Source: an uncultured Alteromonas sp.
Lineage (GTDB): Bacteria > Pseudomonadota > Gammaproteobacteria > Enterobacterales > Alteromonadaceae
DNA: 64,000 bases
Assembly (NCBI GenBank): GCA_964429915.1
Contig: CAYSDZ010000008.1
Span: 32,210 to 96,209, forward strand
Direction of reading: 5' to 3'
In this document: positions 13,238 through 30,687 of the stretch, piece by piece
Numbering within the stretch: the stretch's first letter is position 1
How the letters are laid out: each line of letters opens with the position of its first letter
Translations under genes and position numbers: made by a program
Notes under the pieces: model-generated
The model's input: only the letters and a program-made list of their open reading frames with translations
Database searches by the model: none
What the model was told of the DNA's origin: nothing

Positions 13238-13312
13238 TGCAATGCTGCCTTTTTGTAATTCGTGAATTCAAGGTTCATAAAAATTAAAAATAGTGTATCT
13301 AGTAAACTATTA

Positions 13313-13333
13313 AAATGATATATTATCACTCTT
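13313..13333. promoter_or_regulatory. Candidate Zur-like box upstream of the MerC-domain gene
   Basis: AAATGATATATTATCACTCTT matches AAATGTTATAwTATAACATTT at 17 of 21 positions by eye. Confidence 0.45.
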
Positions 13334-13348
13334 TTATGACCAGTTATT

Positions 13349-13384
13349 TACAACCAACGCATCGAATACAACCAACGCATCGAA
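13349..13384. repeat. Perfect 18-bp tandem duplication
   Basis: TACAACCAACGCATCGAA x2. Confidence 0.95.
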
Positions 13385-13440
13385 AAAATGTATTCAGGTT
13401 CATTTAGGTCAATGGCGTGTTTATTTAGCGAGCAGGAATA

Positions 13441-13872
13441 ATGAAAATTCAGTCTCTTTCCGATAAGTTTGCTATGGCGATCTCTTTTTTATGCCTTATA
13501 CATTGCCTTATTTTACCCGCCTTCGTTATTATGCTGCCTTCTGTTGCATTGTCGTTTTTATCAGATGAAATGTTACATAAAGTATTGCTAATTGCAGTGT
13601 TACCGTTCAGTTTTATTGCACTGGCGTTTGGTTTTAAAAGGCGTGGCAACGCATCTGTCCTTATCACTATCGTTTGTGGTTTGGTTGTTCTTTGTTTCGC
13701 CGCTTTTGCTGGACATGAATTGCTCGGTGAAACCGGAGAAGTAGCCTTAACAGTGTTTGGGTCGTTATTGGTTGCGTTGGGCCATTTTCGTAATACCCGT
13801 TTAAATACTTCCTATGGCATTTCAGGCACTTCAAAGGACGACTCACTCGCGGTGGAGTTGCCAAAGCGTTAA
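13441..13872 (+). CDS. MerC-domain membrane protein
   Basis: DKFAMAISFLCLIHCLILP, four TM helices, LGHFRN. Confidence 0.85.
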   Translation: MKIQSLSDKFAMAISFLCLIHCLILPAFVIMLPSVALSFLSDEMLHKVLLIAVLPFSFIALAFGFKRRGNASVLITIVCGLVVLCFAAFAGHELLGETGEVALTVFGSLLVALGHFRNTRLNTSYGISGTSKDDSLAVELPKR

Positions 13873-13962
13873 ATTGAACTTTACAGTTATCTTATAGTCA
13901 ACTCGCTATAGAATTGGTAAAAAATATTCCCAACGGAAGCTTGCTATTTAGGGATAAGCACA

Positions 13963-14739
13963 ATGACAATGAATGTTTCACGTCTTAATGTTTTGTTTCT
14001 CTCCACGCTATTTTTATTTCCCAAAGTCGCTTTTGCTGACAGTTTATCTGATTTACGAAACGCGTTGATGCAGTTAAATAATAACGCTGAAGTACACGCT
14101 ACACTGAAGTACACCACAAAAAATCAACGTGATTCTAGTGATGACACCACAATAAAAGAAGGCGCAGTAGACATACAAATTCATTTTGATAGTCAGGGAT
14201 TAAGGATGCAGTATAGCGATGAAGTAATGTCTCGATTGGAAGCAGAAAGTGTCAAGCAGGTGAAGGACCCAGATGCTGAAACACCTACCTTGATGGCTGT
14301 TAACAGCATCGATGCGGTCGATGTGAGCCGAATGCTTAACGCGACATTTGGGCTTACTCGCTTACTCGATCAAGCGACCTTTATTGACGAGTCGATAGAA
14401 CGTAAAAATAACAAAGCGTTACGCAAACTGAACTTCACGCTTCCTTTAGAAATACTTATTTCAGACAAACAAACGCGCAAATACGTTAGCAAGTTTAGCA
14501 ATTCATTTTCTGTTCTTATCGATGATGTAGGTATACCGTTGGAGTCGCATCTTGAGTTCAAAGGAAAAGGCCGTGCGTATATCGTCATTCGAGTAGAGGC
14601 CTCTGGTGAAACGCATTCAAGCTATACAGTTCACGAAGGTCGTTTGCTTAGAACAGCACTCACTTCTATTAACCGTTGGGACTCCACCTTTGGTTCTGGG
14701 GAGCAGGTTGATACTGAAAATATCGTGTCAGTTAAATGA
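13963..14739 (+). CDS. Exported hypothetical protein
   Basis: 258-aa ORF with signal peptide (…PKVAFA) and RBS-like GGGAT upstream. Confidence 0.7.
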   Translation: MTMNVSRLNVLFLSTLFLFPKVAFADSLSDLRNALMQLNNNAEVHATLKYTTKNQRDSSDDTTIKEGAVDIQIHFDSQGLRMQYSDEVMSRLEAESVKQVKDPDAETPTLMAVNSIDAVDVSRMLNATFGLTRLLDQATFIDESIERKNNKALRKLNFTLPLEILISDKQTRKYVSKFSNSFSVLIDDVGIPLESHLEFKGKGRAYIVIRVEASGETHSSYTVHEGRLLRTALTSINRWDSTFGSGEQVDTENIVSVK

Positions 14740-15003
14740 AACAAATGGTATTGTGTTAGTTTGAAACAAAGCGTAATTTAAAGTTTACAATATTCACTCC
14801 AAAGTTTAATATCACTTTGAACTATTCCTTCGCACCTCGGGTTGTTTGTTGACCAGTAATCATTGATGTGGTTATTATGGTGTCGAGATTGTTACTCGCT
14901 CAGTTGATAAAAAATTGTTTGAAAATAAACTGAGCTAGTCACTTCTAAAATTAAATAAATAATAAAACACTAATGTAAAAATAGTGGTCTAGGGAGACAA
15001 TTC

Positions 15004-18000
15004 ATGTTTAAAAGTTCTAGGTTAGCGTCAGCTATTAAGTTAGCAGGCGTGGTCGGAGCAGCTTCGCTTACTTTGACTTCGCCGCTTCAAGCGCAAGAAA
15101 GTGACGCTGCGGAAGGGAAAATCGAAAAAATTCAGGTTACTGGTAGTCGCTTGAATACTAATCCAAACTTAACATCGGCGAATCCGGTTCTTGAAATATC
15201 AAACCAAGAAATCAGTGCTCGAGGTGTTATCAACATAGAAGATTTGACCAACACCTTACCTCAGATTATTCCAGGTCAGACGTCTGAACAATCTAACGGT
15301 GCCTCTGGTACTTCTCAGCTTGACCTTAGAGGGCTTGGTGCAGTTAGAACCTTAAGCTTAATTGATGGTCGCCGTTTACCTTTCGGTGATTCTGGCTCTT
15401 CAGCAGTCAATATTGACATTGTTCCTACAAACCTAATCGAAAGAATTGAGGTGTTGACAGGTGGTTCGTCTGCTGTATACGGATCAGACGCGGTAAGTGG
15501 TGTTGTAAACTTTGTGCTTAAAGATGATTTTGAGGGTGCAGAGTTAAACGTTCAATATGGTTTCGCACAAAGCAATAATGAGCGTCCATTGTTTGAAGAA
15601 GTACTAATTGCTAACGAACAACCCGTTCCCGGCAGTACAGTCGATGGCGAAGAAGTTTCGGTATCATTAACGCTAGGTACTAACTTAGATGATGATAAAG
15701 GGAATATTGTTACATTTTTCTCTTATCAGAATCGTAATGAAATTATTGGTGCTGATAGAGTTGGCTCTGCATGTACATTGGGTGGTGGCGACACTAACGG
15801 GTTTGGTTGTGTAGGCTCTTCAAACTTTAGACGCTTTAATAACTTGGCGGATTTTGGCGCAACTGATTTCTTTCAGCAGGAAGATGGTACTTTTACTCCA
15901 TTTGCTGGTGGACCTGCCGAAACGTTCAACTTTGGTGCCACTAACTTTTTCTTACGTCCAGCAGAACGTTTCCAATTCTATACCAAAGCAAATTATGAGT
16001 TTGCAGAAGGACATGAATTATTTGCTGATATCGGGTACATTCAAACGGTATCAGACGCTCAGATTGCTCCTACTGCTTCGTTTGGTTTTTTCGCTCGTAG
16101 CATAAACTGTGGTAACCCTCTTATTCAAGATCCAGTAACTGAAGACGGCCGTTCTATTGCAGAAGCTGTATTACTTTGTTCTCCAGATCAAATTGCTGCA
16201 GATATTGCAAATCCAGGTTCTGTAATTATTGATGGTTTAACCGCTACACATAGAAATGTTGAAGGTGGTGAGCGTAACTCAAGGCTTGAAAACTCTACAT
16301 TTAGATTCGTTGGTGGAGTGCGCGGAGAGCTTAATGATGTTTGGGGTTATGAAGCATTTTTACAATATGCTGAATCAAGAGATGAAGACACTTCTACAGA
16401 AGATTTCCAAATAGACCAACTTGGTCAAGCCATCTTAGTGCAGCTTGACGAAGAAGGGAATGCCGTTTGTATTGATCAATCCAATGGTTGTGTTCCATAT
16501 AACATCTTCCAAAGAGGACCTAATGGTGAGTCGCTTGTAACCAGAGAAGCATTGGATTTCATTGAAGGTGTTGGAATAGTTACTGGTCAAACCGATCAGT
16601 TGGTGCTTGGTGGACATGTACAAGCCGACTTGGGGAATTATGGAATCGAATCACCGCTGGCGCCTGAGTCAGGTGTTGGATTTTTATTCGGTTTGGAATT
16701 TCGTGATGATGGATTAGCTGCATCACCTGATCAAATAAGTCAAAGAGATGATGGTGGTTTCACAGGTGTCGGTGGGTCAACATTGCCTGTTGAAGGGAAT
16801 ATTGAAGTATTCGATATTTTTACTGAATTACAAGTACCGTTAGTGACAGACGCGAGCTGGGCACAAGAGTTGGTATTTAATGCTCAATATCGCCACTCCG
16901 ATTACACAGTAAATGGAAATGGCGTTACAAACGACTTCGGTACTGATACTTATGGATTTCAGCTAACTTGGAAACCTGTAGAGGATGTTACTTTCCGAGG
17001 GCAGGTGCAACGTGCTGTTAGAGCGCCGAACGTAATCGAGCTTTTTACAGGTCAATTTACCAGTCTTCCTGAACTTTCAGCGATTGACACGCCTAACGGT
17101 GATGTATTTGACCCCTGTGCAACAGCTAACCCTGTAGCAACTCTTGATCAGTGTGCCAACACTGGGGTTACAGCAGCCCAATTTGGAAATATTCCAGACA
17201 TTGTTGCTGCTCAGGCTGGTGGTATATCAGGGGGTAATCCTGAACTAACTCCTGAAACATCTGATACAGTAACACTTGGTTTAGTGTATGTTTCGTCTCA
17301 TATAGAGGGTCTTACGGGGTCTTTGGATTATTTCGATATCTCAATAGAAGACGCTATCGTTGGTGGTATTGGAGCTCAAAATATTCTTGATAACTGTTTA
17401 GAATCTGGCAACCCACTGTTTTGTGATTTAGTAAACCGAGACGCTGCAGGTTCTTTAAACCCTGGTGTGTCAGTAGCTGAAAACATCGGTTTCTCTCTTA
17501 CTAATACGAACGCTGCGTTTCTTGAGACCAAAGGTTTTGACGTTCAATTAAACTATCAGCGTGAAATTGATAAAGTGGGTTCTATTTCTGCGCAGTATGC
17601 GGGTACGGTTGTTACTGCTAATGATTTCACGTCATTCTTAGGCTCCGATACAATTGAAAGAGAAGGTCGCTTTGTTGGTCAAGCTGGTTTACCCAGAGCC
17701 GATTACAGACACAGAGTGTTGATTAATTGGGGAACACTTGTTGAGGGCTTAACAGCAACAATAACGTGGCGTCATTTTGCAAGTGTTGAAAACGAAAGCA
17801 ATCCTAATTCTGCTATCGAAGGGTCACTACCAGCAGTCAACTATTTCGATGTCTCTGCAACATGGGAATTTCTTGATGGGTATAGGTTCAGAGCGGGTGT
17901 AAATAACCTTCTTGAGGAAGATTTCCCAATTTCGGTTTCTTCAGGGCCTGCTATAAACGGTAACAACAACACTTTCCCTGGTGTTTATGATACCGGTAGA

Positions 18001-18033
18001 CAGTTCTTCTTTGGACTAGACGTTAGGCTTTAA
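15004..18033 (+). CDS. TonB-dependent receptor
   Basis: Signal peptide, IEKIQVTGSR, LRGLGAVRTLSLIDGRR, IERIEVLTGGSSAVYGSDAVSGVVNF, C-terminal YDTGRQFFFGLDVRL. Confidence 0.95.
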   Translation: MFKSSRLASAIKLAGVVGAASLTLTSPLQAQESDAAEGKIEKIQVTGSRLNTNPNLTSANPVLEISNQEISARGVINIEDLTNTLPQIIPGQTSEQSNGASGTSQLDLRGLGAVRTLSLIDGRRLPFGDSGSSAVNIDIVPTNLIERIEVLTGGSSAVYGSDAVSGVVNFVLKDDFEGAELNVQYGFAQSNNERPLFEEVLIANEQPVPGSTVDGEEVSVSLTLGTNLDDDKGNIVTFFSYQNRNEIIGADRVGSACTLGGGDTNGFGCVGSSNFRRFNNLADFGATDFFQQEDGTFTPFAGGPAETFNFGATNFFLRPAERFQFYTKANYEFAEGHELFADIGYIQTVSDAQIAPTASFGFFARSINCGNPLIQDPVTEDGRSIAEAVLLCSPDQIAADIANPGSVIIDGLTATHRNVEGGERNSRLENSTFRFVGGVRGELNDVWGYEAFLQYAESRDEDTSTEDFQIDQLGQAILVQLDEEGNAVCIDQSNGCVPYNIFQRGPNGESLVTREALDFIEGVGIVTGQTDQLVLGGHVQADLGNYGIESPLAPESGVGFLFGLEFRDDGLAASPDQISQRDDGGFTGVGGSTLPVEGNIEVFDIFTELQVPLVTDASWAQELVFNAQYRHSDYTVNGNGVTNDFGTDTYGFQLTWKPVEDVTFRGQVQRAVRAPNVIELFTGQFTSLPELSAIDTPNGDVFDPCATANPVATLDQCANTGVTAAQFGNIPDIVAAQAGGISGGNPELTPETSDTVTLGLVYVSSHIEGLTGSLDYFDISIEDAIVGGIGAQNILDNCLESGNPLFCDLVNRDAAGSLNPGVSVAENIGFSLTNTNAAFLETKGFDVQLNYQREIDKVGSISAQYAGTVVTANDFTSFLGSDTIEREGRFVGQAGLPRADYRHRVLINWGTLVEGLTATITWRHFASVENESNPNSAIEGSLPAVNYFDVSATWEFLDGYRFRAGVNNLLEEDFPISVSSGPAINGNNNTFPGVYDTGRQFFFGLDVRL

Positions 18034-18312: not shown

Positions 18313-19389
18313 TTAAAAAACATACTCCATCAAAAAATCGGGCATATTGAAGTCCATATCACAGGTTTGCTCATTAAAGCCCTCGTCTAGTACTTCTGTA
18401 ATGTAGGCCAACTCATTCTGTTGAGTCGTTATTGTACGGAGGACGTTTAATTTTTTTATCGCCAACTGTGTTTCTTTTTCGCATCCAAATTGTTTGGCCT
18501 GAAAAATTTTAGCGTAGATATCCCCCTGTTTCGCTGCTTCTACTATGAGCGCTATGCCGCCTGCTTTTAACTCAATGATACCTAAAATGAACTTTGCTCT
18601 TGCTTCATTTCGCGCATTAATTAAAAAATTCAAAATGGTTTTGGTTTTATAGCTTGAGCGAGGGTAGGGCTTGGTTTTTTGCCAAGATTTTGCAGGGAAG
18701 TAACCTTTGTAAAAAGCAAAGGCATGTTTCAAAGCTAGCTCAGTGCTAATAGAAGACAGTGAACTTGGGGAAACATCTATCGCACGATTGTTTTTTTGTT
18801 CATAAGCAAGATTTAGCTTAGCGACTTCTTCCTGCTTTTCGTTCTGAAAGCGGTACTCACTGACAACTACAGCAGTAATGCTCAACGTGATAAATGTACT
18901 GATACTCGCAATTGGAACCGCCACGAACCAACGATTTTTCACCATTTTGAAACTGTTATGTCGATTCAGTTCGACGAGTTTGTAATAAGCTTTGTGCTCA
19001 TAAAAAGCGACACGTGTCTTTGACAAATAAACAGACAGCGCAGCACCAGAGGTATAAAACAAGAAATAAACGGTGGCCCACAAGGTATTATTTGGGATCA
19101 TGGTGAGGTCTAAAGCAAATGCCGCAAGTACAAGGAGTAAATGGTTACAAAGACCAATGATTGAAAAGACAAAGCCGTAACCTTTACCAAATACGCGAAC
19201 TATTGCACCAATCAATACGCCGGATAAGGTTAACATTACTGGAGCAAGGGTGGTGTCGACTTCAACCAAGGCATACCACAAAACTAAAAAAACAGGCGTA
19301 AAAATAGGGCAAATAAGCGAAGCGCGTATCGCGTTTTGAGTTTTTAGCTTTTCGGAAACAGAGTCCAGTAAGTTTTGTTCTACATGCAT
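18313..19389 (-). CDS. Hypothetical membrane protein with a helical C-terminal domain
   Basis: Several TM segments then a soluble helical tail; start placed at MHVEQ (19389) to avoid overlapping the upstream kinase. Confidence 0.65.
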   Translation of the reverse strand: MHVEQNLLDSVSEKLKTQNAIRASLICPIFTPVFLVLWYALVEVDTTLAPVMLTLSGVLIGAIVRVFGKGYGFVFSIIGLCNHLLLVLAAFALDLTMIPNNTLWATVYFLFYTSGAALSVYLSKTRVAFYEHKAYYKLVELNRHNSFKMVKNRWFVAVPIASISTFITLSITAVVVSEYRFQNEKQEEVAKLNLAYEQKNNRAIDVSPSSLSSISTELALKHAFAFYKGYFPAKSWQKTKPYPRSSYKTKTILNFLINARNEARAKFILGIIELKAGGIALIVEAAKQGDIYAKIFQAKQFGCEKETQLAIKKLNVLRTITTQQNELAYITEVLDEGFNEQTCDMDFNMPDFLMEYVF

Positions 19390-19435
19390 ATTATGGGTCT
19401 TGGTTGCGGCTTGAATAGTAGTATTGCTTACAGTG

Positions 19436-21691
19436 TTATTGTTGTTCTGATTTAGAAAAAAGAATAGTGTCGCATGTTCGAAACAAAATAGGAATGTCAA
19501 TAGGCTTACCAATATGCGCACTGAATCCTGCTTGCTCGTAACGTGAAATATCCTCGGCGTAAACATTAGACGTCAGTGCAACAATAGGAATTGTCGGATA
19601 AGCAGCTTTGATCTGCCTGCAAGCATCAACACCGTCCAGATTCGGCATTTGAATATCCATTAAAATTAAATCAAAGTGTTGTTTGTGGGTTGTTTCAATG
19701 GCTTCGACTCCATCATGAGCAAAAACGAGTTGAGCCTGAGAAGGTGCAAGCATAGATTCAATAATGGCTCGGTTGATTTCATTGTCTTCAGCAATAAGAA
19801 AACGTTTGCCTGAATAGTCTGACTGTGGTTCAGCTAGCGTAGCTTGGGGTTGTGTAGGTTGTTTGGATGCCGTTAAGGGCAAGCTCACAATAAAACGAGC
19901 GCCTTTCCCCAACTCACTGCTCACCTTTATAGAACCGTTCATCATATCAACTAATGACTCAGTAATAGCCAAGCCAAGGCCCGTACCACCAAACTTTCGC
20001 GTGGTTGATTCATTGACTTGCTCAAACCGAGAAAACAACTTGTTCAATGCCTCATCGGGAATACCTATCCCAGTATCACTCACTTCAAAACATAATTGCG
20101 TTGAATCGATAAGATGCAGTTTCACCTCACCTTGTTCGGTAAATTTTACTGCGTTACTGCATAAATTAAGCACGATTTGTTTTATTCTTACTGGGTCGCC
20201 CAACCAACCATCACAAAAATTTTGATCGACCTTGACGGAAAAACTCAACGGTTTCTTTTGAACTAAAGGCGCGAGATCAGACTCCACCGACCTAACCACG
20301 TCAAGCATTTCAAAGTGAAGCGTTTCAAAAGTCAATTTTCCAGCTTCTATTTTTGAGTAGTCTAAGATGTCGTTAATAATGGTCATTAAATTGTGGCTAG
20401 AAAAAAGCGCTTTTTCAATTAGATGCAAGCTATGCCGCTCGCTAGTGCGGTTTTGAATGAGTTGCAAAGCACCGTGAATACCATTTAGGGGCGTACGTAT
20501 TTCGTGGCTCATATTCGATAAAAAAACAGATTTTGCGGCATTCGCCGATTCAGCTTCTTTCTTAGCAGATTCTAGCTCGCCTGTTCTTTGTATTACCAGT
20601 CGCTTCAAATTTTGGTTAAACCAATGCTGCCCCAACGAATAAAAAAGAATGATTGTGGTAATAAAAGCCCCGATAGCGAGATAGGTTTTGTTAAAGGTAT
20701 AGGCTTCTGTATTGTAATCATCTAAAAACAAGCCATTTAAATTTAACTGATTTTGCATAATGCCTAAATCTTTATAAGTTTGTGCAATACGTTCAAATCG
20801 GGCAGGAAATAAGGTACCTATTTGCACAAACTTGGGCTTGATAAGGCTTTCAATCACTTCAGCTTCGTCTAAAAGACGGGATAGAGGTATGTTTGCACCG
20901 TATTGTTCGATAATGACTTTGGCAATTTCCGCTTTATTCTCAAGTGCATACTTCCAACCTTTTCTCGACGCTTCTGTAAAAGCTTCTACGTCAGTTCGGT
21001 TATTTTTGACGTACTCTTCAGTTGTAAATAGTAAGTCACCATAAAAGTCGATACCGTAGGAAGCGGGGTCGATTATGTTGATGTCAAACTTTTTATCGGC
21101 ATAGTATAGGGGCTGGTCTGAACGATAGGCAGCCATTAAATCTGTGACGCCTTCAATTAAAGCATCATCATCAAAAGCTTGTGGTATGTACTCATAATCT
21201 TGTTCCTCTAAGCCCGCGAATAATAGCAAAGCTTGCAGAGAGGCGTCGTCAATGTTTTTTTGAAACATAATTGAACGACCGCGTAAATCGTACGCACTCA
21301 CAATATCTTTTTCTTTCAAAGACATAAAAACAAGCGGGCTTGTTTGAAACACAGATGTGGCGATTACCACAGGGTGACCATTCAAACGATGCAAAACGAT
21401 GCTTGAATCAGACAAACCGAACTGTGCTTCGCCCGTTAATACTGTTTCAAGCGGAGAACGGCTACCATCGTGTTGTTTTATGCTTACATCAAACCCTGCT
21501 TGGTCATAAAAACCTTTGTGCTTGGCAGCGTAATAACCTGCAAATTGGAAGCTATGAAACCACTTTAGTTGCAGGGTGACAGGTTCTTGAGCTGTACACG
21601 AAAATGCAGCAAGAAAGCAAAGAGCCACCGACATTGCAGCAATCAAAACTATTCGTAGAACCATTAAAATAAGACTTTGTTTTACCGTCAA
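19436..21691 (-). CDS. Hybrid sensor histidine kinase / response regulator with an NMT1/THI5-like periplasmic binding domain
   Basis: QLKWFHSFQFAGYYAA; H-box FLSNMSHEIRTPLNG; NLCSNAVKFT, DTGIG, GGTGLGL; REC DLILMDIQMP. Confidence 0.93.
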   Translation of the reverse strand: MTVKQSLILMVLRIVLIAAMSVALCFLAAFSCTAQEPVTLQLKWFHSFQFAGYYAAKHKGFYDQAGFDVSIKQHDGSRSPLETVLTGEAQFGLSDSSIVLHRLNGHPVVIATSVFQTSPLVFMSLKEKDIVSAYDLRGRSIMFQKNIDDASLQALLLFAGLEEQDYEYIPQAFDDDALIEGVTDLMAAYRSDQPLYYADKKFDINIIDPASYGIDFYGDLLFTTEEYVKNNRTDVEAFTEASRKGWKYALENKAEIAKVIIEQYGANIPLSRLLDEAEVIESLIKPKFVQIGTLFPARFERIAQTYKDLGIMQNQLNLNGLFLDDYNTEAYTFNKTYLAIGAFITTIILFYSLGQHWFNQNLKRLVIQRTGELESAKKEAESANAAKSVFLSNMSHEIRTPLNGIHGALQLIQNRTSERHSLHLIEKALFSSHNLMTIINDILDYSKIEAGKLTFETLHFEMLDVVRSVESDLAPLVQKKPLSFSVKVDQNFCDGWLGDPVRIKQIVLNLCSNAVKFTEQGEVKLHLIDSTQLCFEVSDTGIGIPDEALNKLFSRFEQVNESTTRKFGGTGLGLAITESLVDMMNGSIKVSSELGKGARFIVSLPLTASKQPTQPQATLAEPQSDYSGKRFLIAEDNEINRAIIESMLAPSQAQLVFAHDGVEAIETTHKQHFDLILMDIQMPNLDGVDACRQIKAAYPTIPIVALTSNVYAEDISRYEQAGFSAHIGKPIDIPILFRTCDTILFSKSEQQ

Positions 21692-21768: not shown

Positions 21769-23094
21769 ATGCTGCACTCTTTATTAGTTCCGTTAAACAA
21801 CGTAAAAGGGAAGGGTGATTTTTGTGCTGAGCTTGAGATAGGAGAGCCGTCGCAGTTGCAAACCCTGCTACTAGACTCAGGCAGTAGCTCACTTGTGCTT
21901 TCTCCTCAACACTACGATGCCTCCATTGATCAAAGGATTGAGCCCACCACGCTATGTCAACATGTAAAATACGGTGTGGGCGAATGGTTAGGCCCAGTAG
22001 TAAGCAGTCAAATTACCATCGGTACAGGGCGGCATAAGGCCACTATTCGATCGGCTTTTTTTGCAATAGCCGAAGAACGCAAAGCGAATACCTTTGTGCG
22101 AACAAGCGGTATACTAGGCTTGGCTTATGAACCGCTGAATACTGCACATGATTTGTCGATAAATACCTTTCCATGGCGGCCAGAGTGCAGCGAAAAAGTC
22201 CAATCAGAACTTTTCTTGCGGAAGGTGTTAAACAGCCCGAAAAAACAAGTAAATACATTTTTTAGTCAATGTGTTGAACAGGGTATCGTGCCTGATCAAT
22301 TTGGCTTTTTAGTGCATCGTTCATCGGTGTTTCATTCTAAAAATAAGGAAACATCAGAGCAATTAAGCGCCCACCCACTGAATCAAGGGATGCTAGCCTT
22401 AGGCAAGCCTCATTTGCATACGCAGTTGCACAAAAACGATTTTATTCATATACCGCTAGTTTGCGATAAATACTACAATGTGAATTTATTAGGCGTGAAG
22501 GTAGAGAGCCAAGCCATGCTGACTCCTCCTCCTTTCATTGAACACAAAAGCAAGCCCAGTAACAGCAATTGCTTTGTAGATAGTGGTGCTAATGCTATTT
22601 TGTTGCCTGAAAGCCTGTTTACTGAACTTATGCAGAATTTGGCTCAGGCCGTACCTCATCAAGCGCATTTATTGTCGGCTTACCAGCAATACAACGGCAA
22701 GGAAGTGGGCATTCCTTTAAATAACCTGAACTTGTCTGAATGGCCCAATATTCAGTTTACCTTTAGCGGTAGAAAGGGGCGCAGCGAAAGCTTAATTTTA
22801 ACCCCTTATAGTTATTGGCAAACGCATGCACCTGAATGTAATCAGGCAAGTTTTAAAATAACGACGTTGCCGGGCTGGCAAGCTCAAACGATTTTAGGCC
22901 TGCCTTTAATGTGTGAGTATTACACGATATTTGATCGTCAAGCAGGTGACAAAGGTGCATTAGTATTTGCTAGCCCTAGGGTAGCTCCCCATCGTTTAAG
23001 CGACGTATTACATCACGACTGGAAAGCGATGCAGTCATTATGTAAGCATTTTTTCAAACGCGTTAATAAAAGACACAACAAAAAACAAGAGTAA
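21769..23094 (+). CDS. Pepsin-like (family A1) aspartic protease, shewasin-like, no signal peptide or propeptide
   Basis: Two catalytic motifs LLDSGSS and FVDSGAN, flap YGVG, psi-loops GILGLAY and TILGLP. Confidence 0.9.
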   Translation: MLHSLLVPLNNVKGKGDFCAELEIGEPSQLQTLLLDSGSSSLVLSPQHYDASIDQRIEPTTLCQHVKYGVGEWLGPVVSSQITIGTGRHKATIRSAFFAIAEERKANTFVRTSGILGLAYEPLNTAHDLSINTFPWRPECSEKVQSELFLRKVLNSPKKQVNTFFSQCVEQGIVPDQFGFLVHRSSVFHSKNKETSEQLSAHPLNQGMLALGKPHLHTQLHKNDFIHIPLVCDKYYNVNLLGVKVESQAMLTPPPFIEHKSKPSNSNCFVDSGANAILLPESLFTELMQNLAQAVPHQAHLLSAYQQYNGKEVGIPLNNLNLSEWPNIQFTFSGRKGRSESLILTPYSYWQTHAPECNQASFKITTLPGWQAQTILGLPLMCEYYTIFDRQAGDKGALVFASPRVAPHRLSDVLHHDWKAMQSLCKHFFKRVNKRHNKKQE

Positions 23095-23101
23095 AAGCAA
23101 T

Positions 23102-23932
23102 ATGACTCAAACCAAAGCAGGCTCCTTAGTGTGCGTAGGCACAGGCATGACTCTCGGGGCGCACATAACCCCCATAGCAAGAAGCCACATAGAAAATGCA
23201 GACATTGTTTATTGTTCTGCCGCAACGAGCTTGATGGAAGAGTGGATTATGTCGATGAATACCAACACCATCAGCTTGCAACATTACTATGAAGAAGGAA
23301 AAGATCGACGCCACACTTATAAAGCAATGGTAAATACACTACTGTCTTCGCTACGAAAAGGAATGCATGTGGTGGGCGCGTTTTACGGGCACCCGGGTGT
23401 TTTCGCAAAAGCGCCACACGACGCGGTCGCACAAGCCAAATCGGAAAGCTTTCATGCTCATATGGAAGCCGGTATATCAGCAGAAGCCTGTTTGTATGCC
23501 GATATGGGGATAGACCCAGGGAAAGTGGGGTGTCAGCATTATGAAACCACACAGTTTATGCTATATGAGCGCACTATCGACCCATCGGCTTATCTTATTT
23601 TATGGCAAATTGGCTTGGCCGGAGACCGACAAGCACAACAATTTACTACTGAAAATGCGTATAGAACGGTATTAAAAGAACAGCTTATTAGCTTGTATTC
23701 CCCTCAACACAACATCGCAATTTATGAAGCAAAATCTCTACCTACCGACACAATACGCATTGAATGGCTGGCCTTATCAGAATTAGACAAGGCTAGCGTT
23801 TTTCAACACAGCACTTTAGTGATACCGCCGATCAGCGCTCCAATTATTAATCCAAGGGCCGAGGCGCTACTCGCCGATATCGCCAGCAACAGCGTTGTTA
23901 TAAAACAGTCACAAACAGACAGTAATTTTTAA
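23102..23932 (+). CDS. Borosin-type peptide backbone alpha-N-methyltransferase (SonM-like, tetrapyrrole methylase fold)
   Basis: GSLVCVGTG, YYEEGKDRRHTY, FYGHPGVF, GISAEACLYADMGIDPG, LILWQIG, IYEA and STLVIPP align by eye with SonM/OphMA methyltransferase motifs. Confidence 0.9.
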   Translation: MTQTKAGSLVCVGTGMTLGAHITPIARSHIENADIVYCSAATSLMEEWIMSMNTNTISLQHYYEEGKDRRHTYKAMVNTLLSSLRKGMHVVGAFYGHPGVFAKAPHDAVAQAKSESFHAHMEAGISAEACLYADMGIDPGKVGCQHYETTQFMLYERTIDPSAYLILWQIGLAGDRQAQQFTTENAYRTVLKEQLISLYSPQHNIAIYEAKSLPTDTIRIEWLALSELDKASVFQHSTLVIPPISAPIINPRAEALLADIASNSVVIKQSQTDSNF

Positions 23933-23943
23933 AGGGTGAAGAA

Positions 23944-24504
23944 ATGGTGGACAGAGTTTTTGAAACATCACGATTTTTGTGCACGCCTGTGCAACAAAGT
24001 GATAGCAATTTCGTTCGAAGCCTTTATCAATCATCTTCACGTATGGCGCACTTAGGTGGTGTTTTTTCACAGCAAAACGCTCAAGCGCTGTTTGAAAAAA
24101 TGCTCGATGCCAACACCAAGCTATTTAGCTCAGAGTCTAGCTCAGAGTCTAGTTCAGGATATTGGCTAATTGAAAATAAAAACACAGGCGATAAGATGGG
24201 GGTGCAAGGAATAAGCGCAGTCACTTCGCTGCTTGCAACGGCAGAGGTCGGGATAATTTTAAATGAACAAGCAGAAGGAAAAGGCACACCGTTTGAAGTG
24301 TTAAGTGCGATGTTTAGTTATGTGTTTTCATCATTGGGTGTAGAATTATTAATTGAACGACACGTCATTTCCAACAAAGCTATTGGTAGGGTATCGAGAC
24401 GTTTGGGTTTCAACCATACTGTTGCGGTTAAATATAACGATACACCATCTGAACTCTCGGTGTTAGAGAAAAAAGACTGGTTGAAACAGTCATATTGTCA
24501 GTAA
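23944..24504 (+). CDS. GNAT N-acetyltransferase (RimJ/RimL-like)
   Basis: FETSRFLCTP, AEVGIIL…AEGKG, N-KA…RRLGF. Confidence 0.8.
   Translation: MVDRVFETSRFLCTPVQQSDSNFVRSLYQSSSRMAHLGGVFSQQNAQALFEKMLDANTKLFSSESSSESSSGYWLIENKNTGDKMGVQGISAVTSLLATAEVGIILNEQAEGKGTPFEVLSAMFSYVFSSLGVELLIERHVISNKAIGRVSRRLGFNHTVAVKYNDTPSELSVLEKKDWLKQSYCQ
24126..24157 (+). repeat. In-frame 12-bp tandem repeat inside the GNAT gene
   Basis: TAGCTCAGAGTC x2 plus TAGTTCAG, encoding SSESSSESSS. Confidence 0.9.
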
Positions 24505-24583
24505 CGTAACTCGTGATTTGGTTAAATCCACAAAAAAATAACAACACATTTATCAATAACAAAAAACAAAAAAGGAAACAGCA

Positions 24584-24814
24584 ATGACAGCAATTCAACT
24601 TTTAGAACAACTGGGTTCCTCTGCAGCACTTCAGCGCCAAGGTTGTGCCCATGCCGATGCCATTCGTGCACAGGCTATGCAATATATCGATACTATTGAT
24701 ACGCCTATCAAACAGTGGTGTATTCTATTTCCGGCAGAGGATGAGCAAGCTAACGACAATCAAGAAGACAATTCGCAAAATGATAAAGAAAAAGAAAGTG
24801 TCAAACTTAATTGA
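24584..24814 (+). CDS. Candidate split-borosin precursor peptide (76 aa)
   Basis: RBS AAGGA; N-terminal LLEQLGSSAAL resembles the borosin-binding-domain start; hydrophobic IKQWCILFPA followed by an acidic tail; lies in the methyltransferase operon. Confidence 0.7.
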   Translation: MTAIQLLEQLGSSAALQRQGCAHADAIRAQAMQYIDTIDTPIKQWCILFPAEDEQANDNQEDNSQNDKEKESVKLN

Positions 24815-26547
24815 TTTTCTGTAAATATTCTTTCAGTTTCATATTAATATTGGCTGCTCTGATTGGTGGCCAAGTCTATGGAGAAAATCTTGATGATATT
24901 TTTGCTGCGGCAGATGATTCTAGAACGTCGAATATAAGAAAATTTGCCGAGCTTTTAAATGTCCTTGGAAATAGAAAAAATGAGTTTTCAGATTATCAAA
25001 TTGATTACTTTACTTACCTTGACATTTATAAAGACTCTCTTAGCGGAGAATATATCGAATCAATTGAAAGACACAAGGAGTTGGTAAATCAGTCTGAGTT
25101 TACCGATATTAAATACAGGTCCACCTACTCAATCATTTCTATGTATGGTGTAATGCGAAAATTTTATGAAGGTGCGCAATTACTAAATAGATTGGATGCC
25201 TTAAGTCGTAAGATTGATGACCCTAAAATTTTAAACGGTGGTGAAATAACAAAAGCTATCTTTTATCAAGAGGCTAACCAATATCAACTTGCATTTAGCA
25301 TAGCCATGCAATTAACACAAAAAAGCTTGCTACCTCGCTCTAAGTGTATCGTTAGCGCTGTCCTAGTTGAATCTGCTTATTATATTGAAGCTGAACCAAT
25401 CGGTATGGGGTTCGTAAATGAATCTGAACTTTATTGCAATAGCATTGGTGAAGCGTTTTTGGGAAGTTTTATATCGATTACCAAAGCAAAAATGCACGTA
25501 GATGCTAAGCAAAATATTGAAGCACGGCAAACCCTAGAAAAAATCGAAAAAGTAGTAACAGAAACCAATTACCCAAGATTAAGTGCTATGTATTACGCGA
25601 CCAAAGCAGAGGTGCTGTATTCGCTTGGCAATTTCGAGGCGGCTATATCAAGTGCCCAGTTAGCTCTGGGACAATCAGCACAAGCAAAATTCAACAAGCC
25701 TCTTGTTTCATCCTATCTTACCTTGTCGAATATTGAACACGCGCGAGGTAACTATAAAACAGCGCTTGACTATCACAAGAGCTATGTAGCAGCAGACAAG
25801 GCGTACGACAGCGAATTGCAATCTAATCAACTGGCGTTTCAACGCGCACAATTTGAGTCTGAACTCAATGCCAGAAACTTAGAACTGGCCTACGCAGAGA
25901 ATGAATTATTATCGGCAGAGGCGATAACGGCTAAACAAGAGGCAAAAAATAGTTTGTTAGCAGCAGCACTGGCAATATCTGCCTTAGCCATTGTGTTCGT
26001 CAGCTTTTACCGCACCCATATCAACAAGAAAAAGTTTAAACAATTAGCTGAAACCGATGGGTTAACAAAATTAAAAAATCGGCGAGAGTTTTGTAAGCGT
26101 TCACAAGAAGCAATAGATTTCTGTCACGCCGGAAAGCATGCTATTAGCATGATTATTTTGGATTTAGATCACTTTAAACAAATCAACGATACTCATGGAC
26201 ATGCAGCGGGAGATGCGGTTCTAAAGTCGGTGTCGGCGTTACTGAAACAAGAATGCCGTCAAAACGATATTGTCGGTCGTTTAGGTGGCGAAGAATTTGG
26301 CATAACGTTGCCTAGTTGCGACGGTGACAAAGCTCGTTTTATAGCGGAAAGCTTAAGACAAAAAATTGAAGCCTTGCCGATTTCGCATAACGAAAAGGTG
26401 CTTAGCGCAACAGCAAGCTTTGGCATTGTCGAAGGAAAAGACAAACTACTTTCCTACGACGCATTGTTCAATGAAGCGGATGCCGCCCTTTACCAAGCCA
26501 AACATGCAGGAAGGAACAGAGTTCAGCTTATTGAAATTTCACTTTAA
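24811..26547 (+). CDS. Periplasmic-TPR / TM / GGDEF diguanylate cyclase
   Basis: Signal or TM N-terminus, TPR-like helices, TM ALAISALAIVFVSF, DGLTKLKNRR, DLDHFKQINDTHGHAAGD, RQND I-site, intact GGEEF. Confidence 0.92.
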   Translation: MIFCKYSFSFILILAALIGGQVYGENLDDIFAAADDSRTSNIRKFAELLNVLGNRKNEFSDYQIDYFTYLDIYKDSLSGEYIESIERHKELVNQSEFTDIKYRSTYSIISMYGVMRKFYEGAQLLNRLDALSRKIDDPKILNGGEITKAIFYQEANQYQLAFSIAMQLTQKSLLPRSKCIVSAVLVESAYYIEAEPIGMGFVNESELYCNSIGEAFLGSFISITKAKMHVDAKQNIEARQTLEKIEKVVTETNYPRLSAMYYATKAEVLYSLGNFEAAISSAQLALGQSAQAKFNKPLVSSYLTLSNIEHARGNYKTALDYHKSYVAADKAYDSELQSNQLAFQRAQFESELNARNLELAYAENELLSAEAITAKQEAKNSLLAAALAISALAIVFVSFYRTHINKKKFKQLAETDGLTKLKNRREFCKRSQEAIDFCHAGKHAISMIILDLDHFKQINDTHGHAAGDAVLKSVSALLKQECRQNDIVGRLGGEEFGITLPSCDGDKARFIAESLRQKIEALPISHNEKVLSATASFGIVEGKDKLLSYDALFNEADAALYQAKHAGRNRVQLIEISL

Positions 26548-27189
26548 TGATACGCCAGCTTCGTTAACATCAAGAACATCTGTTTCAGTGCTGGCTTCAT
26601 CTAGCCAACGCTGAATAGCAGCACTGTTCAATACTTTGGATTGATATTGCTTTGCATTTTCTGATAGTGCTACGTTGTAGGTTTTAAATCTCAACGCAAC
26701 TGGGGCAAACATCGCATCGGCAATACTCCAATCATCAAACAGCCAAGCGTTTGGGAACAGTAGCATTTGTGTAGACCAAATTTGATCAATGCGCGCGATG
26801 TCCTTGGCTAACCCTTCCGTTATTTCGACTTTGCGAAGGGCGCGGCAGTTCATTGGCATTTCGTTACGTAAGTGAATAAAACCGGCATGCATTTCAGCAC
26901 TCAAGGCGCGAGCTTTGGCTCTTAGTGCTCTGTCTTTTGGCCATGCCTTGTGGTCTAAGTAAGTTTCATTCACATATTCTAATATCGCAAGCGATTCCCA
27001 TACTGCTATGTCGTCGTCCAGTAAGGCAGGCACTTTTCCAGACGGAAACTCTTTTCCAAGCGCATCGTAGAAGGCTTGGGTCATTAGCGTTAATTTTTCT
27101 ACTTCGACGTCAAGATTGTATTGATCAAAAATAAGCCAAGCACGCAATGACCAGCTAGAATAATTCTGATTTGCAATATAAAGTTTCAT
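26539..27189 (-). CDS. Glutathione S-transferase family protein
   Basis: NYSSWSLRAW, GKVPAL, WESLAILEY, SAEMHAGF, FSIADAMFAPV-like. Confidence 0.92.
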   Translation of the reverse strand: MKLYIANQNYSSWSLRAWLIFDQYNLDVEVEKLTLMTQAFYDALGKEFPSGKVPALLDDDIAVWESLAILEYVNETYLDHKAWPKDRALRAKARALSAEMHAGFIHLRNEMPMNCRALRKVEITEGLAKDIARIDQIWSTQMLLFPNAWLFDDWSIADAMFAPVALRFKTYNVALSENAKQYQSKVLNSAAIQRWLDEASTETDVLDVNEAGVSLK

Positions 27190-27420
27190 TTGTATTCCTC
27201 TAAATGACCAGAATAGGTTGCATCATTTTTGCTCTTAGTAAAGGGGAAAGAGCAAATAACATACAAAAATAAAACATAGATTTGTACGACAAATGACGAA
27301 TCTATGGGGTGTATGGTAGCGCGCAATTTCAACGATATGATAAGTTTATTAACAAAGCAAAGAAATCAACATCTTATAAAAATAGTCAGTCACGACAAGA
27401 CCTTCAATAGGAAATCCAGT

Positions 27421-30400
27421 ATGCCAGTTTTAAAACCGCTTTTAACATGCAGTGCAGCGCTTGCTCTGTTGTTATCTCCGTCGCTTTACGCAGAAAAAAA
27501 AGATGCTAATCCGCTTGCCAGCATACCGCTTCGTACCATTGGGCCAGCTGCTATTTCTGGCCGAGTGTCAGATTTTGCGTTTAACCCAAAAGCAACGAAT
27601 GAGTTTTACGTTGCAACGGCTTCGGGCAATGTGTGGAAAACCACCAACAACATGACAACGTGGACACCGCTATTTGAAAATGAAGGCTCGTATTCTGTGG
27701 GGGTTATTGAAATGGCACCGTCTAACCCTGCAATATTGTGGTTAGGTTCGGGTGAAAACAATGCGCAGCGCTCCGTAGCATATGGAGATGGGGTGTATAA
27801 ATCGCTTGATGGCGGTAAAACGTGGAAAAATATGGGGCTGAAAAACTCGGGCCATATTTCACAAATCTGGATCAACCCAGACAATCAAGAACACGTGTTG
27901 GTAGCCGCACAAGGGCCACTTTGGAGCAACGGTGGCGATCGCGGCCTATACAAAACACTCGATGGTGGAGCAACTTGGCAACGCATTTTAGACATAGACA
28001 AATACACCGGTATTAATGAATTTGTAGTCGACCCTAATAACGTGGATAACATTGTCGCAACCAGTTATCAACGACGTCGCCATGTGTGGACACTCATTAA
28101 CGGAGGCCCCGGCAGTGGCATTCATAAAACCACCAACGGCGGTGAAACCTGGAGTGAGATAAGCTCAGGTTTACCCAAAGACAATATGGGGCGGATAGGT
28201 ATCGCCATGGCACCGTCGGCGAGCCAAATTTTGTACGCCATCATTGAATCTAACGATAAAGAAAAAGGGGTGTATCGCTCTGACAATTTCGGTCAAACTT
28301 GGCAAAAACGCTCAAGCCATATGACTAGCAGCCCACAATATTATAATGAACTGATTGTCGACCCGCATAACCCTGAACGACTTTACTCTGTAGACACCTT
28401 TACTAAAGTGTCTGAAGATGGCGGCAAAACGTTCACATCGCTATCAAACGAATTTCGTCATGTAGACGACCACGCTTTATGGATCGACCCAGCCAATACA
28501 GAGCATCTTATCATTGGTGGAGACGGCGGTGTGTATGAAAGTTGGGATCGTGGACAAAACTGGCGCTGGGCGCAAAACTTACCTATCGCCCAGTTCTACC
28601 GCATTCAACCTGACAATGCGTTTCCGTTTTATAACGTATGTGGCGGCACGCAAGACAATAGCTCGCTCTGTGCTCCCTCGCGCACCGATGTTATTCACGG
28701 TATTACCAATGCCGATTGGAATACCGTCATTGGTGGTGATGGTTACAAACCACAAATCGATCCCAACGATCCGAATATCATTTATGCCCAATACCAGTAT
28801 GGCGGTTTAGCGCGCTATGACAAACGAACACGCGAGCGAGTATCGATTACACCGCATCCGCTAGAGGGCGAAAAAAATTATAAATGGAATTGGAATTCAC
28901 CTATTTTGATCAGTCCGCATAAACCCACGCGTCTGTTTTACGCCGCTGAAAAAGTGTTTCAATCGGATGACCGTGGTGAAAACTGGCAAGCTATCAGCCC
29001 CGATCTCACTCGCAAGGTCGACAGAAACAAGTTGATTGTAATGGACCGAGTATGGAGTGTGGATACCATCGCCAAAAATGCTTCTACTTCCATGTATGGC
29101 TCGATTATTGCGCTAAACGAAAGCCCAATCAAGCAAGGGTTGTTATATGTAGGCACAGACGACGGCTTGATTAGTGTAAGCGAAGATAGCGGTAAAAATT
29201 GGCGTATTCAGGATAGCTTTAAAGGCGTGCCTGATATGTCTTTAGTTGAAGATATTGTGCCATCGCTGCATGAAGAAAACACGGCGTATGCTGTGTTTGA
29301 TAACCATAAGCGTGGCGATTATAAGCCTTACGTTATGAAAACCACCAACAAAGGCAAAAGCTGGAAGCTGATCAGCAACAACCTGCCAGAAAGAGGCTCA
29401 GCGCATACCATTGCCGAAGATCATATCGACCCGAATTTGCTGTTTTTGGGTACGGAATTTGGTTTATTTTTCAGCCAAAATGGCGGCGATACATGGTCTA
29501 AAATGACAGGGAATTTCCCGACTATTTCAGTCCGTGATATTGAAATTCAGCGCCGTGAAAGCGATTTGGTAGTGGGTACTTTTGGCCGCGGTATTTATAT
29601 ATTGGATGATTATTCACCATTACGCACACCGGCTAAGCGTTTGAAAGATAAGGAAGCGACCTTGTTTCCAGTTAAAGACACATGGCTGTATCTTGAGGGA
29701 TATCAGTACGGCGGTGAAGAAAAAGGTTCGAATGGCAACGCCTTTTACACTGCGAATAACCCACACTACGGCGCGGTATTTTCTTTTTACTTAAATGAAG
29801 CTTATAAAACCTTGCAAGAAACAAGGCGCGAGCAGGAAAAAGTGATAGAGAAAGATGGCGGTGATACGCCTTACCCAAGTTGGGAAACCTTGCGTAAAGA
29901 AGATCAGGAAGAAGCGCCTGCGGTATTTCTTGAGGTGAAAGACGCTCAAGGGAAAGTTGTTCGTCGAGTCAATGCCCCTACCTCAAAAGGTTTCCATCGC
30001 GTGGCGTGGGATATGCACTACCCCTCTGCAGCACCAGTGAACTTAAATACATCCAGTGGCTATGTACCACCATGGGCCATTCCCCCTAAAGGACCTATCG
30101 CTTTGCCCGGAGAGTATACGGTGACACTTAAAAAACGCCAATTTGGCAAGCTATCAGACTTATCCGAGCCACAAGCCTTTCAGCTTACGTTGCTGAATAA
30201 TAGCCCTGAGATCACCTCTGACCGAGAGGCCTTACTTGCAGTTCAGCAGCGAGCAGCCAATTTACTGCGTTCGGTGAGAGGAGCGTCAAAGGCACAGCGC
30301 GAACTTACCGACCGCATTAAGCACTTAAAAGCGGCCGTTGATCTGACGCCTTCGGCTACCGAAGAGCAGGCGCAAAAGGTCAGGGACTTGGCTGCGCGAA

Positions 30401-30687
30401 TGGTAACTTTAACTACATTGTTGAATGGTGATGCGACGGTACGCGCAAGGCATGAACCCACTCAGTGGTCGGTTGCAGGTAGAACCTCAAGTTTATATGG
30501 GGCAATTAGTGGCTCGCAAAATCGTATATCTGGGAATCATTTAGCTTCATTGGAGATAGCGGAAGCAGAATACACAAGAGTTGCTGATCAGCTGCGAGCG
30601 TTGCAGACTGAGCTTAACGAGCTTGAGGCTGAACTTGAAGCGCTAGGCGCACCATGGACACCAGGGCGTATTCCAAGCATTTCATAG
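27421..30687 (+). CDS. VPS10/BNR Asp-box repeat protein (WD40/YVTN-like glycosyl hydrolase family)
   Basis: Start placed at MPVLKP with a signal peptide; repeated S/T-x-D-G-G-x-T-W Asp boxes; GRVSD; GGTQDN. Confidence 0.88.
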   Translation: MPVLKPLLTCSAALALLLSPSLYAEKKDANPLASIPLRTIGPAAISGRVSDFAFNPKATNEFYVATASGNVWKTTNNMTTWTPLFENEGSYSVGVIEMAPSNPAILWLGSGENNAQRSVAYGDGVYKSLDGGKTWKNMGLKNSGHISQIWINPDNQEHVLVAAQGPLWSNGGDRGLYKTLDGGATWQRILDIDKYTGINEFVVDPNNVDNIVATSYQRRRHVWTLINGGPGSGIHKTTNGGETWSEISSGLPKDNMGRIGIAMAPSASQILYAIIESNDKEKGVYRSDNFGQTWQKRSSHMTSSPQYYNELIVDPHNPERLYSVDTFTKVSEDGGKTFTSLSNEFRHVDDHALWIDPANTEHLIIGGDGGVYESWDRGQNWRWAQNLPIAQFYRIQPDNAFPFYNVCGGTQDNSSLCAPSRTDVIHGITNADWNTVIGGDGYKPQIDPNDPNIIYAQYQYGGLARYDKRTRERVSITPHPLEGEKNYKWNWNSPILISPHKPTRLFYAAEKVFQSDDRGENWQAISPDLTRKVDRNKLIVMDRVWSVDTIAKNASTSMYGSIIALNESPIKQGLLYVGTDDGLISVSEDSGKNWRIQDSFKGVPDMSLVEDIVPSLHEENTAYAVFDNHKRGDYKPYVMKTTNKGKSWKLISNNLPERGSAHTIAEDHIDPNLLFLGTEFGLFFSQNGGDTWSKMTGNFPTISVRDIEIQRRESDLVVGTFGRGIYILDDYSPLRTPAKRLKDKEATLFPVKDTWLYLEGYQYGGEEKGSNGNAFYTANNPHYGAVFSFYLNEAYKTLQETRREQEKVIEKDGGDTPYPSWETLRKEDQEEAPAVFLEVKDAQGKVVRRVNAPTSKGFHRVAWDMHYPSAAPVNLNTSSGYVPPWAIPPKGPIALPGEYTVTLKKRQFGKLSDLSEPQAFQLTLLNNSPEITSDREALLAVQQRAANLLRSVRGASKAQRELTDRIKHLKAAVDLTPSATEEQAQKVRDLAARMVTLTTLLNGDATVRARHEPTQWSVAGRTSSLYGAISGSQNRISGNHLASLEIAEAEYTRVADQLRALQTELNELEAELEALGAPWTPGRIPSIS

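Follow-up and report, generated by a model that had tools for sequence, protein, structure and literature searches.

Ribosomal peptides are rarely N-methylated on their backbone, a feature of interest to peptide engineers, and we asked whether a five-gene operon from an uncultured Alteromonas sp. leads to a product that carries this modification. The operon lies at positions 21769-26547 of the window, i.e. the whole stretch of 64,000 nucleotides that was analysed (GenBank assembly GCA_964429915.1, contig CAYSDZ010000008.1, positions 32,210 to 96,209 of the forward strand). A first-pass annotation had read it as a complete split-borosin pathway for a backbone-N-methylated peptide, in which methyltransferase and precursor are encoded by separate genes. 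We find the assignment to the split borosins well founded and the proposed end product doubtful. The operon is probably of the sam (shewasin) type known from Shewanella amazonensis, with an acidic peptide as predicted product. By sequence, all five genes are present, the catalytic residues of the four enzymes are intact, the linkage of the genes is conserved, and the precursor aligns with SamA1 of S. amazonensis.

The list of open reading frames (ORFs) confirmed the layout described before, with five co-oriented genes on the + strand, gaps of 7, 11 and 79 bp and a final 4-bp overlap. In this overlap, TTGA, the TGA stop of the precursor gene and the TTG start of the cyclase gene share bases. 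The features are:

21769-23094, + strand: A1 (pepsin-like) aspartic peptidase, homologue of shewasin A/SamP, 441 amino acids (PF00026 Asp, E 5.8e-16)
23102-23932, + strand: borosin alpha-N-methyltransferase, SonM/SamM1-like, 276 amino acids (PF00590, E 1e-15)
23944-24504, + strand: GNAT acyltransferase, RimJ/RimL-like, 186 amino acids (PF13302, E 8.4e-16)
24505-24583, + strand: A-rich spacer of 79 bp with an AGGA ribosome-binding site 7 nt before the precursor ATG (sequence reading)
24584-24814, + strand: precursor, SamA1 orthologue, 76 amino acids, without Pfam match
24719-24745, + strand: recognition and cleavage motif C46-I47-L48-F49/P50-A51-E52-D53-E54 of the precursor, the slash marking the predicted cut (alignment with SamA1)
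24731-24811, + strand: predicted released peptide PAEDEQANDNQEDNSQNDKEKESVKLN, 27 amino acids (homology to the S. amazonensis peptide)
24811-26547, + strand: membrane diguanylate cyclase, 578 amino acids, TTG start (PF00990 GGDEF, E 1.2e-43, and TPR_12)

The same locus occurs on two near-identical scaffolds from seawater metagenomes, on which independent gene callers returned the same five genes, the ORF of 76 codons included. As opposite-strand genes bracket the unit, a hybrid histidine kinase ending at 21691 on one side and a GST at 26539-27189 on the other, the five genes form its natural boundary. Their spacing suggests co-transcription. A scan for promoters and terminators stayed at background (12 found against 13.3 expected, and 8 against 5.5), and no significant signal of either kind was detected in the 79-bp spacer.

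The methyltransferase supports the assignment to the borosins. The SonM-type Y...RxxxY motif (YYEEGKDRRHTY) and the YGHP motif, both named in the first-pass annotation, are present and align with SonM, Y63, R69 and Y73 corresponding to SonM Y58, R67 and Y71, and Y95 to SonM Y93. According to mutagenesis, these four residues organise the active site and cofactor binding in SonM (PMC8429565). In addition, E-A-C-L-Y-A-D was detected as the counterpart of the DCLFAD-type motif, which was defined for borosins together with YGHP (Imani et al., 10.1101/2021.12.24.474128). All 25 PDB matches of the protein were borosin enzymes, with SonM (7ltc, E 4.9e-68) as the best, followed by dbOphMA (1.6e-49), OphMA (~4e-46) and MroMA (9e-37), and no CobA or RsmI chain was found among them at E 0.01. 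Comparison with SamM1 gave 50% identity (E 3e-91), the equivalents of R65 and Y69 being kept. The fungal enzymes OphMA, dbOphMA and MroMA (type I-III borosins) share the homologous methyltransferase domain (E 1e-37 to 1e-49) but differ in being fused to their own core, in introducing many methylations and in leading to macrocyclic products, and partners of the A1 peptidase, GNAT and GGDEF kinds are absent.

As Pfam returned only the generic family PF00590, and NCBIfam gave weak matches to YabN and CobA, an ordinary tetrapyrrole or rRNA methylase, adjacent by chance to a 76-codon ORF that is not a gene, had to be considered. The NCBIfam scores are far under their cutoffs, however (44.7 against 525 and 12.8 against 198), the significant PDB matches are borosin enzymes throughout, and the small ORF recurs in 42 distinct sequences that share a specific motif, always in the same position. 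These observations contradict a chance arrangement, to which we give practically no credence. Grouping with the tetrapyrrole methylases (CobA/RsmI), the outcome that would have spoken against the first-pass annotation, was not observed, and the split-borosin assignment was borne out. From its sequence, the enzyme is a borosin methyltransferase and not one of the tetrapyrrole type, and it is predicted to methylate amides of the precursor with S-adenosylmethionine (SAM).

The closest homologue of the operon is the sam cluster of S. amazonensis, which was studied biochemically in 2024. Shewasin A (SamP) is a borosin peptidase there (10.1101/2024.01.09.574750; Lee et al., ACS Chem Biol 2024;19:1116), as the first-pass annotation had correctly stated. 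SamM1 adds a single methyl group, on Phe52 of the SamA1 leader, and SamP cleaves between Phe53 and Pro54 efficiently only in the methylated precursor (10.1101/2024.01.09.574750). The peptide recovered from S. amazonensis cells, PAEDEPEKEQQENEEEDEAPKA (anionic, PAEDEPEKEQQ...), is unmethylated (10.1101/2024.01.09.574750). Because the primers used for cloning span the peptidase to the GGDEF gene (10.1101/2024.01.09.574750) and a PF13302 gene lies inside, the sam cluster comprises the same five families (SamP, PF13302 acetyltransferase, SamM1, SamA1 and GGDEF protein) that stand on one strand in the window.

The precursor links the operon to this system. Its gene lies 651 bp downstream of the methyltransferase gene, with the GNAT gene between, and the peptide consists of a shortened leader, predicted to be helical and probably akin to a borosin binding domain (residues 1 to ~40), a recognition patch and an acidic tail. 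C46-I47-L48-F49/P50-A-E-D-E aligns on C50-V51-F52(Me)-F53/P54-A-E-D-E of SamA1, and both precursors thus share a C-x-hydrophobic-hydrophobic/P-A-E-D-E junction followed by an acidic tail. A profile of 29 family members built without SamA1 recovered SamA1 with 55 bits over its full length. Across the family the junction follows the motif [IM]-[WV]-C-hydrophobic-hydrophobic-hydrophobic/P-[AE]-[DE]-[DE]. Among the 42 distinct precursors, P4 (C46) is Cys and P1' (P50) is Pro in 40 each; P3-P1 (I47, L48, F49) are hydrophobic in all, with Leu at P2 in 26; P2' (A51) is Ala or Glu in 38, and P3'-P5' (E52, D53, E54) are Asp or Glu in 34-38 per position. Their tails, ~40% acidic, reach a median of 26 residues.

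In the S. amazonensis homologues, the only ones in which these steps were demonstrated, the methyltransferase binds the helical leader and N-methylates the backbone once, at the penultimate hydrophobic residue ahead of the invariant Pro, and for the pair SamP/SamA1 alone it was shown that the cytoplasmic peptidase cuts the hydrophobic/Pro bond efficiently only if this methyl is present. The proteins from the window would be expected to act alike. As the precursor aligns residue for residue with SamA1, we predict SAM-dependent methylation of the L48 amide, cleavage between F49 and P50, and release of the 27-mer PAEDEQANDNQEDNSQNDKEKESVKLN as an unmethylated anionic peptide; the methyl group would be left on the leader fragment of 49 residues. 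The predicted peptide has 9 acidic and 3 basic residues, a monoisotopic mass of 3087.35 Da and a pI of ~4.05.

A pathway to a backbone-N-methylated peptide, as proposed by the first-pass annotation, would correspond instead to the son cluster of S. oneidensis (SonM, SonA, the GGDEF protein SO1480 and the efflux pump SO1481). Here, the end product itself would be methylated as in shewanellamide A, a bis-N-methylated 16-mer obtained from cell pellets only (PMC10549244, PMC8429565), with the protease trimming the methylated core and the GNAT capping it. Both loci have a split (type IV) methyltransferase with identical key residues, a separate precursor whose leader is helical or, in the window, predicted to be so, and a downstream GGDEF gene; the window has no efflux pump gene. 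SonM-family enzymes make such a 16-mer in S. oneidensis, the window methyltransferase is as close to SonM as to SamM1, and the methylated N-terminal fragment could be trimmed to a small peptide ending in ...C-I-(Me)L-F. The precursor, however, argues for another outcome. The SonA core is hydrophobic, C-terminal, twice methylated and itself the product, whereas the window precursor has no such C-terminal core: C-I-L-F, the four residues just before the invariant Pro, is its only hydrophobic patch, and Pro and the acidic tail follow directly. The family profile, which covers SamA1 in full, matched SonA in the leader only (16.5 bits, SonA residues 8-51, in a one-to-one test). Furthermore, the peptide isolated from cells is unmethylated in the sam system, and the son cluster has neither a peptidase nor a GNAT. 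We therefore regard a methylated end product as distinctly unlikely, and the precursor as an orthologue of SamA1 rather than a carrier of a SonA-type core; the peptide released in the window is probably acidic and unmethylated rather than backbone-methylated. To this extent the earlier claim of a pathway for an N-methylated peptide could not be upheld.

Differences from the sam cluster were also found. In the window the methyltransferase gene precedes the GNAT gene, whereas it follows the GNAT gene in L005 and L006, the two Shewanella loci examined; for sam itself the order of the two genes follows only from consecutive accession numbers, with the place of the GNAT gene assumed. The window leader is ~13-20 residues shorter, P2-P1 are Leu-Phe instead of Phe-Phe, Asn and Gln are more frequent in the tail, and the GNAT has a Ser/Glu repeat insert.

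Structural comparison of the precursor leader was less clear than the alignment with SamA1. An AlphaFold2 model from 29 sequences placed helices at residues 3-12, 15-19 and 21-35 followed by a disordered tail (predicted local distance difference test score 62, predicted template modelling score 0.23), and hhalign of the precursor family against SonA gave a probability of 7-17%. With the profile match to the SonA leader taken into account, homology of the leader to the borosin binding domain of SonA is likely but short of proof. Several observations weigh against the sam-type assignment and its predicted product. The window leader falls within a subfamily of short members (70-80 amino acids) that lacks ~13-20 residues of SamA1 and SonA, and three leader helices are predicted against five in the SonA domain. 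SonA was missed when the 76-residue peptide was compared with PDB sequences by plain phmmer and when a profile of 18 precursors was used, which gave chance matches only, and Foldseek of the low-confidence precursor model against PDB gave 0 matches. As P2-P1 vary in the family (Leu-Phe here, Phe-Phe in SamA1, Val-Val or Leu-Ala in other members), methylation may not fall at exactly the predicted site. The window module contains neither an exporter nor an immunity gene, and for the sam system itself the final natural product is still undefined (10.1101/2024.01.09.574750). A search of RNA-seq runs found none carrying the locus, which is present in DNA runs, all of them seawater metagenomes. Finally, the experimental support for the assignment comes from the S. 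amazonensis homologues.

The peptidase is consistent with the sam-type reading. It was described before as a pepsin-like protease without signal peptide, which could be verified by PF00026 (59.3 bits, cutoff 19.9), by both catalytic motifs, D36-S-G and D271-S-G-A, with the flap Y68, and by hydropathy, which revealed no hydrophobic segment at the N-terminus or elsewhere. Since D36 corresponds roughly in position to D32 of mature pepsin, a pro-segment is missing as well. In an alignment of 14 bacterial homologues D36, G38, Y68, D271 and G273 were invariant, and both lobes align with BACE2. The protein is 35% identical to SamP (E 1e-70), with which it shares the absence of a pro-segment, a cytoplasmic location and the second motif DSGA, tied by the authors to activity near neutral pH (10.1101/2024.01.09.574750). 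Hydrophobic segments are also absent from methyltransferase and precursor, which places all three in the cytoplasm. A1 peptidases have been reported from 194 of 2,699 borosin clusters, with 73 more found by PSI-BLAST (10.1101/2024.01.09.574750). Apart from the module, ~60 loci with A1 peptidases (L020-L061, L063-L086 and L089) were collected from metagenome contigs that look non-marine (sample types unchecked) and from an Isosphaeraceae genome, with no methyltransferase, GNAT or linked GGDEF gene nearby; three of them (L053, L055 and L056) have the peptidase divided between two ORFs. These methyltransferase-free loci match the non-borosin peptidase class of the preprint (10.1101/2024.01.09.574750).

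The role of the GNAT is less evident. PF13302 is matched with 59.4 bits (cutoff 25.4), and the acyl-CoA loop Q-A-E-G-K-G is present, being degenerate in some homologues. Similarity to RimJ, RimL and PseH is weak only (NCBIfam), and by sequence no PDB relative was found at E<=0.01. A comparison with 1.8 billion proteins returned just 12 representative clusters at E<=1e-10, and with 21-37% identity across the module loci it is the fastest-diverging enzyme of the module. More tentatively than for the steps above, it might acylate the released peptide on an amine, be it that of the newly exposed N-terminal Pro or of a Lys. The first-pass annotation had taken the GNAT to suggest an extra acylation step not known to be characterised for this architecture. 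Its family and the statement that its chemistry is uncharacterised in this setting both hold, but the GNAT is no new feature here: PF13302 occurs in ~26% of split borosin clusters (Imani et al., 10.1101/2021.12.24.474128), and the acetyltransferase of the sam cluster has been flagged as a possible source of an extra modification (10.1101/2024.01.09.574750). Within the GNAT gene, a 12-bp tandem repeat of 2.7 copies (window 24126-24157) encodes the insert SSESSSESSS, which is absent from the GNATs of 10 homologous clusters.

The synteny check proposed at first pass showed the same five genes together in 17 other independent loci from Alteromonadaceae, Aliiglaciecola, Shewanella and marine metagenomes, with protein identities of 21-67%. 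These are an Alteromonadaceae metagenome-assembled genome (L001), which is the closest genome match (peptidase identity 53%), a TARA scaffold, another marine scaffold, Aliiglaciecola lipolytica, Shewanella avicenniae and S. sedimentimangrovi (L002-L006), and 11 marine metagenome loci (L009-L019 and L062). The precursor is found at the same position in every locus extending far enough, and the order of the two genes before it is either methyltransferase-GNAT as in the window or GNAT-methyltransferase. Identity to the window proteins drops in parallel across the module, the ranges being 42-67% for the methyltransferase, 32-53% for the peptidase, 21-37% for the GNAT, 39-49% for the GGDEF domain and 23-41% for the cyclase sensor domain, which aligned over its full ~350-400 residues in every locus. 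As the flanking genes differ between loci, the module moves as a unit.

The cyclase is predicted to consist of a signal or transmembrane segment (residues 1-20), a periplasmic TPR-like domain of ~358 amino acids, a transmembrane helix (378-404) and a cytoplasmic GGDEF domain. With GGEEF at 492, an RxxD I-site (R483-Q-N-D) five residues upstream and 159.5 bits for TIGR00254 (cutoff 37.4), it carries, as judged from sequence, the active-site motifs of an active diguanylate cyclase. That such genes often accompany split borosins, as noted at first pass, agrees with the literature: GGDEF domains occur in 56% of the clusters, and the proteins span the membrane with a periplasmic TPR domain (Imani et al., 10.1101/2021.12.24.474128). 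In type X borosins, TPR, membrane span, GGDEF and methyltransferase are even fused (10.1101/2021.12.24.474128). The same elements are linked in the window, where they are separate genes with the precursor between enzymes and cyclase. Within the sam-type reading, the co-translated cyclase with its periplasmic TPR domain might couple the system to signalling by cyclic di-GMP (c-di-GMP), a step that we put forward with more reserve than methylation and cleavage.

A further explanation goes beyond this and takes the operon as a signalling switch rather than an antibiotic-type pathway. Precursor and translationally coupled cyclase would be the conserved unit, and methyltransferase, peptidase and GNAT a post-translational switch, in which the methyl mark licenses proteolysis and one fragment, the peptide or the leader, tunes c-di-GMP as a regulatory ligand; methylation-gated proteolysis might control the cyclase or be controlled by it. 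In 14/14 loci the precursor stop lies -8 to +30 bp from the cyclase start, which is tighter than the link between precursor and enzymes (spacer upstream of the precursor -4 to 335 bp), and the module is inherited together with the periplasmic sensor domain. The marine scaffold L003 has a second precursor-like ORF and a second cyclase gene, 61 bp apart and without a methyltransferase of their own. Neither a transporter or exporter nor an immunity gene was found in any module locus, and the products of sam and son were obtained from cell pellets or extracts, not from supernatants. It is because of the spacing, the second pair in L003 and the published GGDEF-methyltransferase fusions that we keep this explanation open. 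Against it, GGDEF genes turn up very often as neighbours in these bacteria, and no paper linking borosins experimentally with c-di-GMP was found in the literature searched. The sensor domain, moreover, faces the periplasm, whereas synthesis of the peptide takes place in the cytoplasm, and the domain is net acidic (-2 to -18 in 11/12 computable loci), which is unfavourable for binding a polyanion. Direct binding of the polyanionic peptide to a basic sensor domain is thus disfavoured. On the whole, the switch seems an unlikely explanation, although less so than a methylated end product, and the same holds for the more specific form in which precursor and cyclase are the conserved unit. The sam-type operon remains the preferred reading.

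The net acidity of the sensor domains would be unexpected if the polyanionic peptide were bound directly. Additional copies of module genes were observed in two loci. L003 contains an extra leader-only ORF of 53 amino acids (9854-10015), besides the second pair mentioned above (12839-14894), whose precursor-like ORF (57 amino acids) keeps C-L-M-V-P with a short tail and whose cyclase gene is of the TPR-transmembrane-GGDEF type. In S. sedimentimangrovi (L006, 4836-6599) an extra homologous GGDEF gene lies directly upstream of the peptidase gene.

All components of the operon and their architecture have been described already. The locus adds that all five genes of the module, the cyclase among them, are conserved far outside Shewanella, in marine Alteromonadaceae; it also yields a junction motif defined for the entire family and a naturally minimal leader (in a precursor of 76 amino acids), suited to asking what methyltransferase and peptidase recognise. 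Apart from the sam type, no system has been reported in which modification of the leader licenses proteolytic release, and the compact operon lends itself to two questions, namely the task of the GNAT and the constant translational coupling of the cyclase to the precursor. Should the signalling explanation be true, this borosin subfamily would represent a signalling device and not a secreted natural product.

The genes around the operon were considered as further members and rejected, as the flanking genes differ in every locus. The hybrid histidine kinase (19436-21691, - strand) has a periplasmic NMT1/THI5-like domain and is transcribed divergently 77 bp upstream of the peptidase gene, and it is not conserved beside the module in other loci. 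The ORF at 18313-19566 (- strand), in its longest form, extends 131 bp into the 3' end of the kinase gene; the gene callers used on metagenomes choose a later start (358 amino acids), and only a sub-threshold match to DUF6377 was obtained. Unrelated to the module are a Sortilin/Vps10-BNR repeat protein of 1127 amino acids encoded downstream (27304-30687) and a TonB-dependent receptor at 15004-18033.

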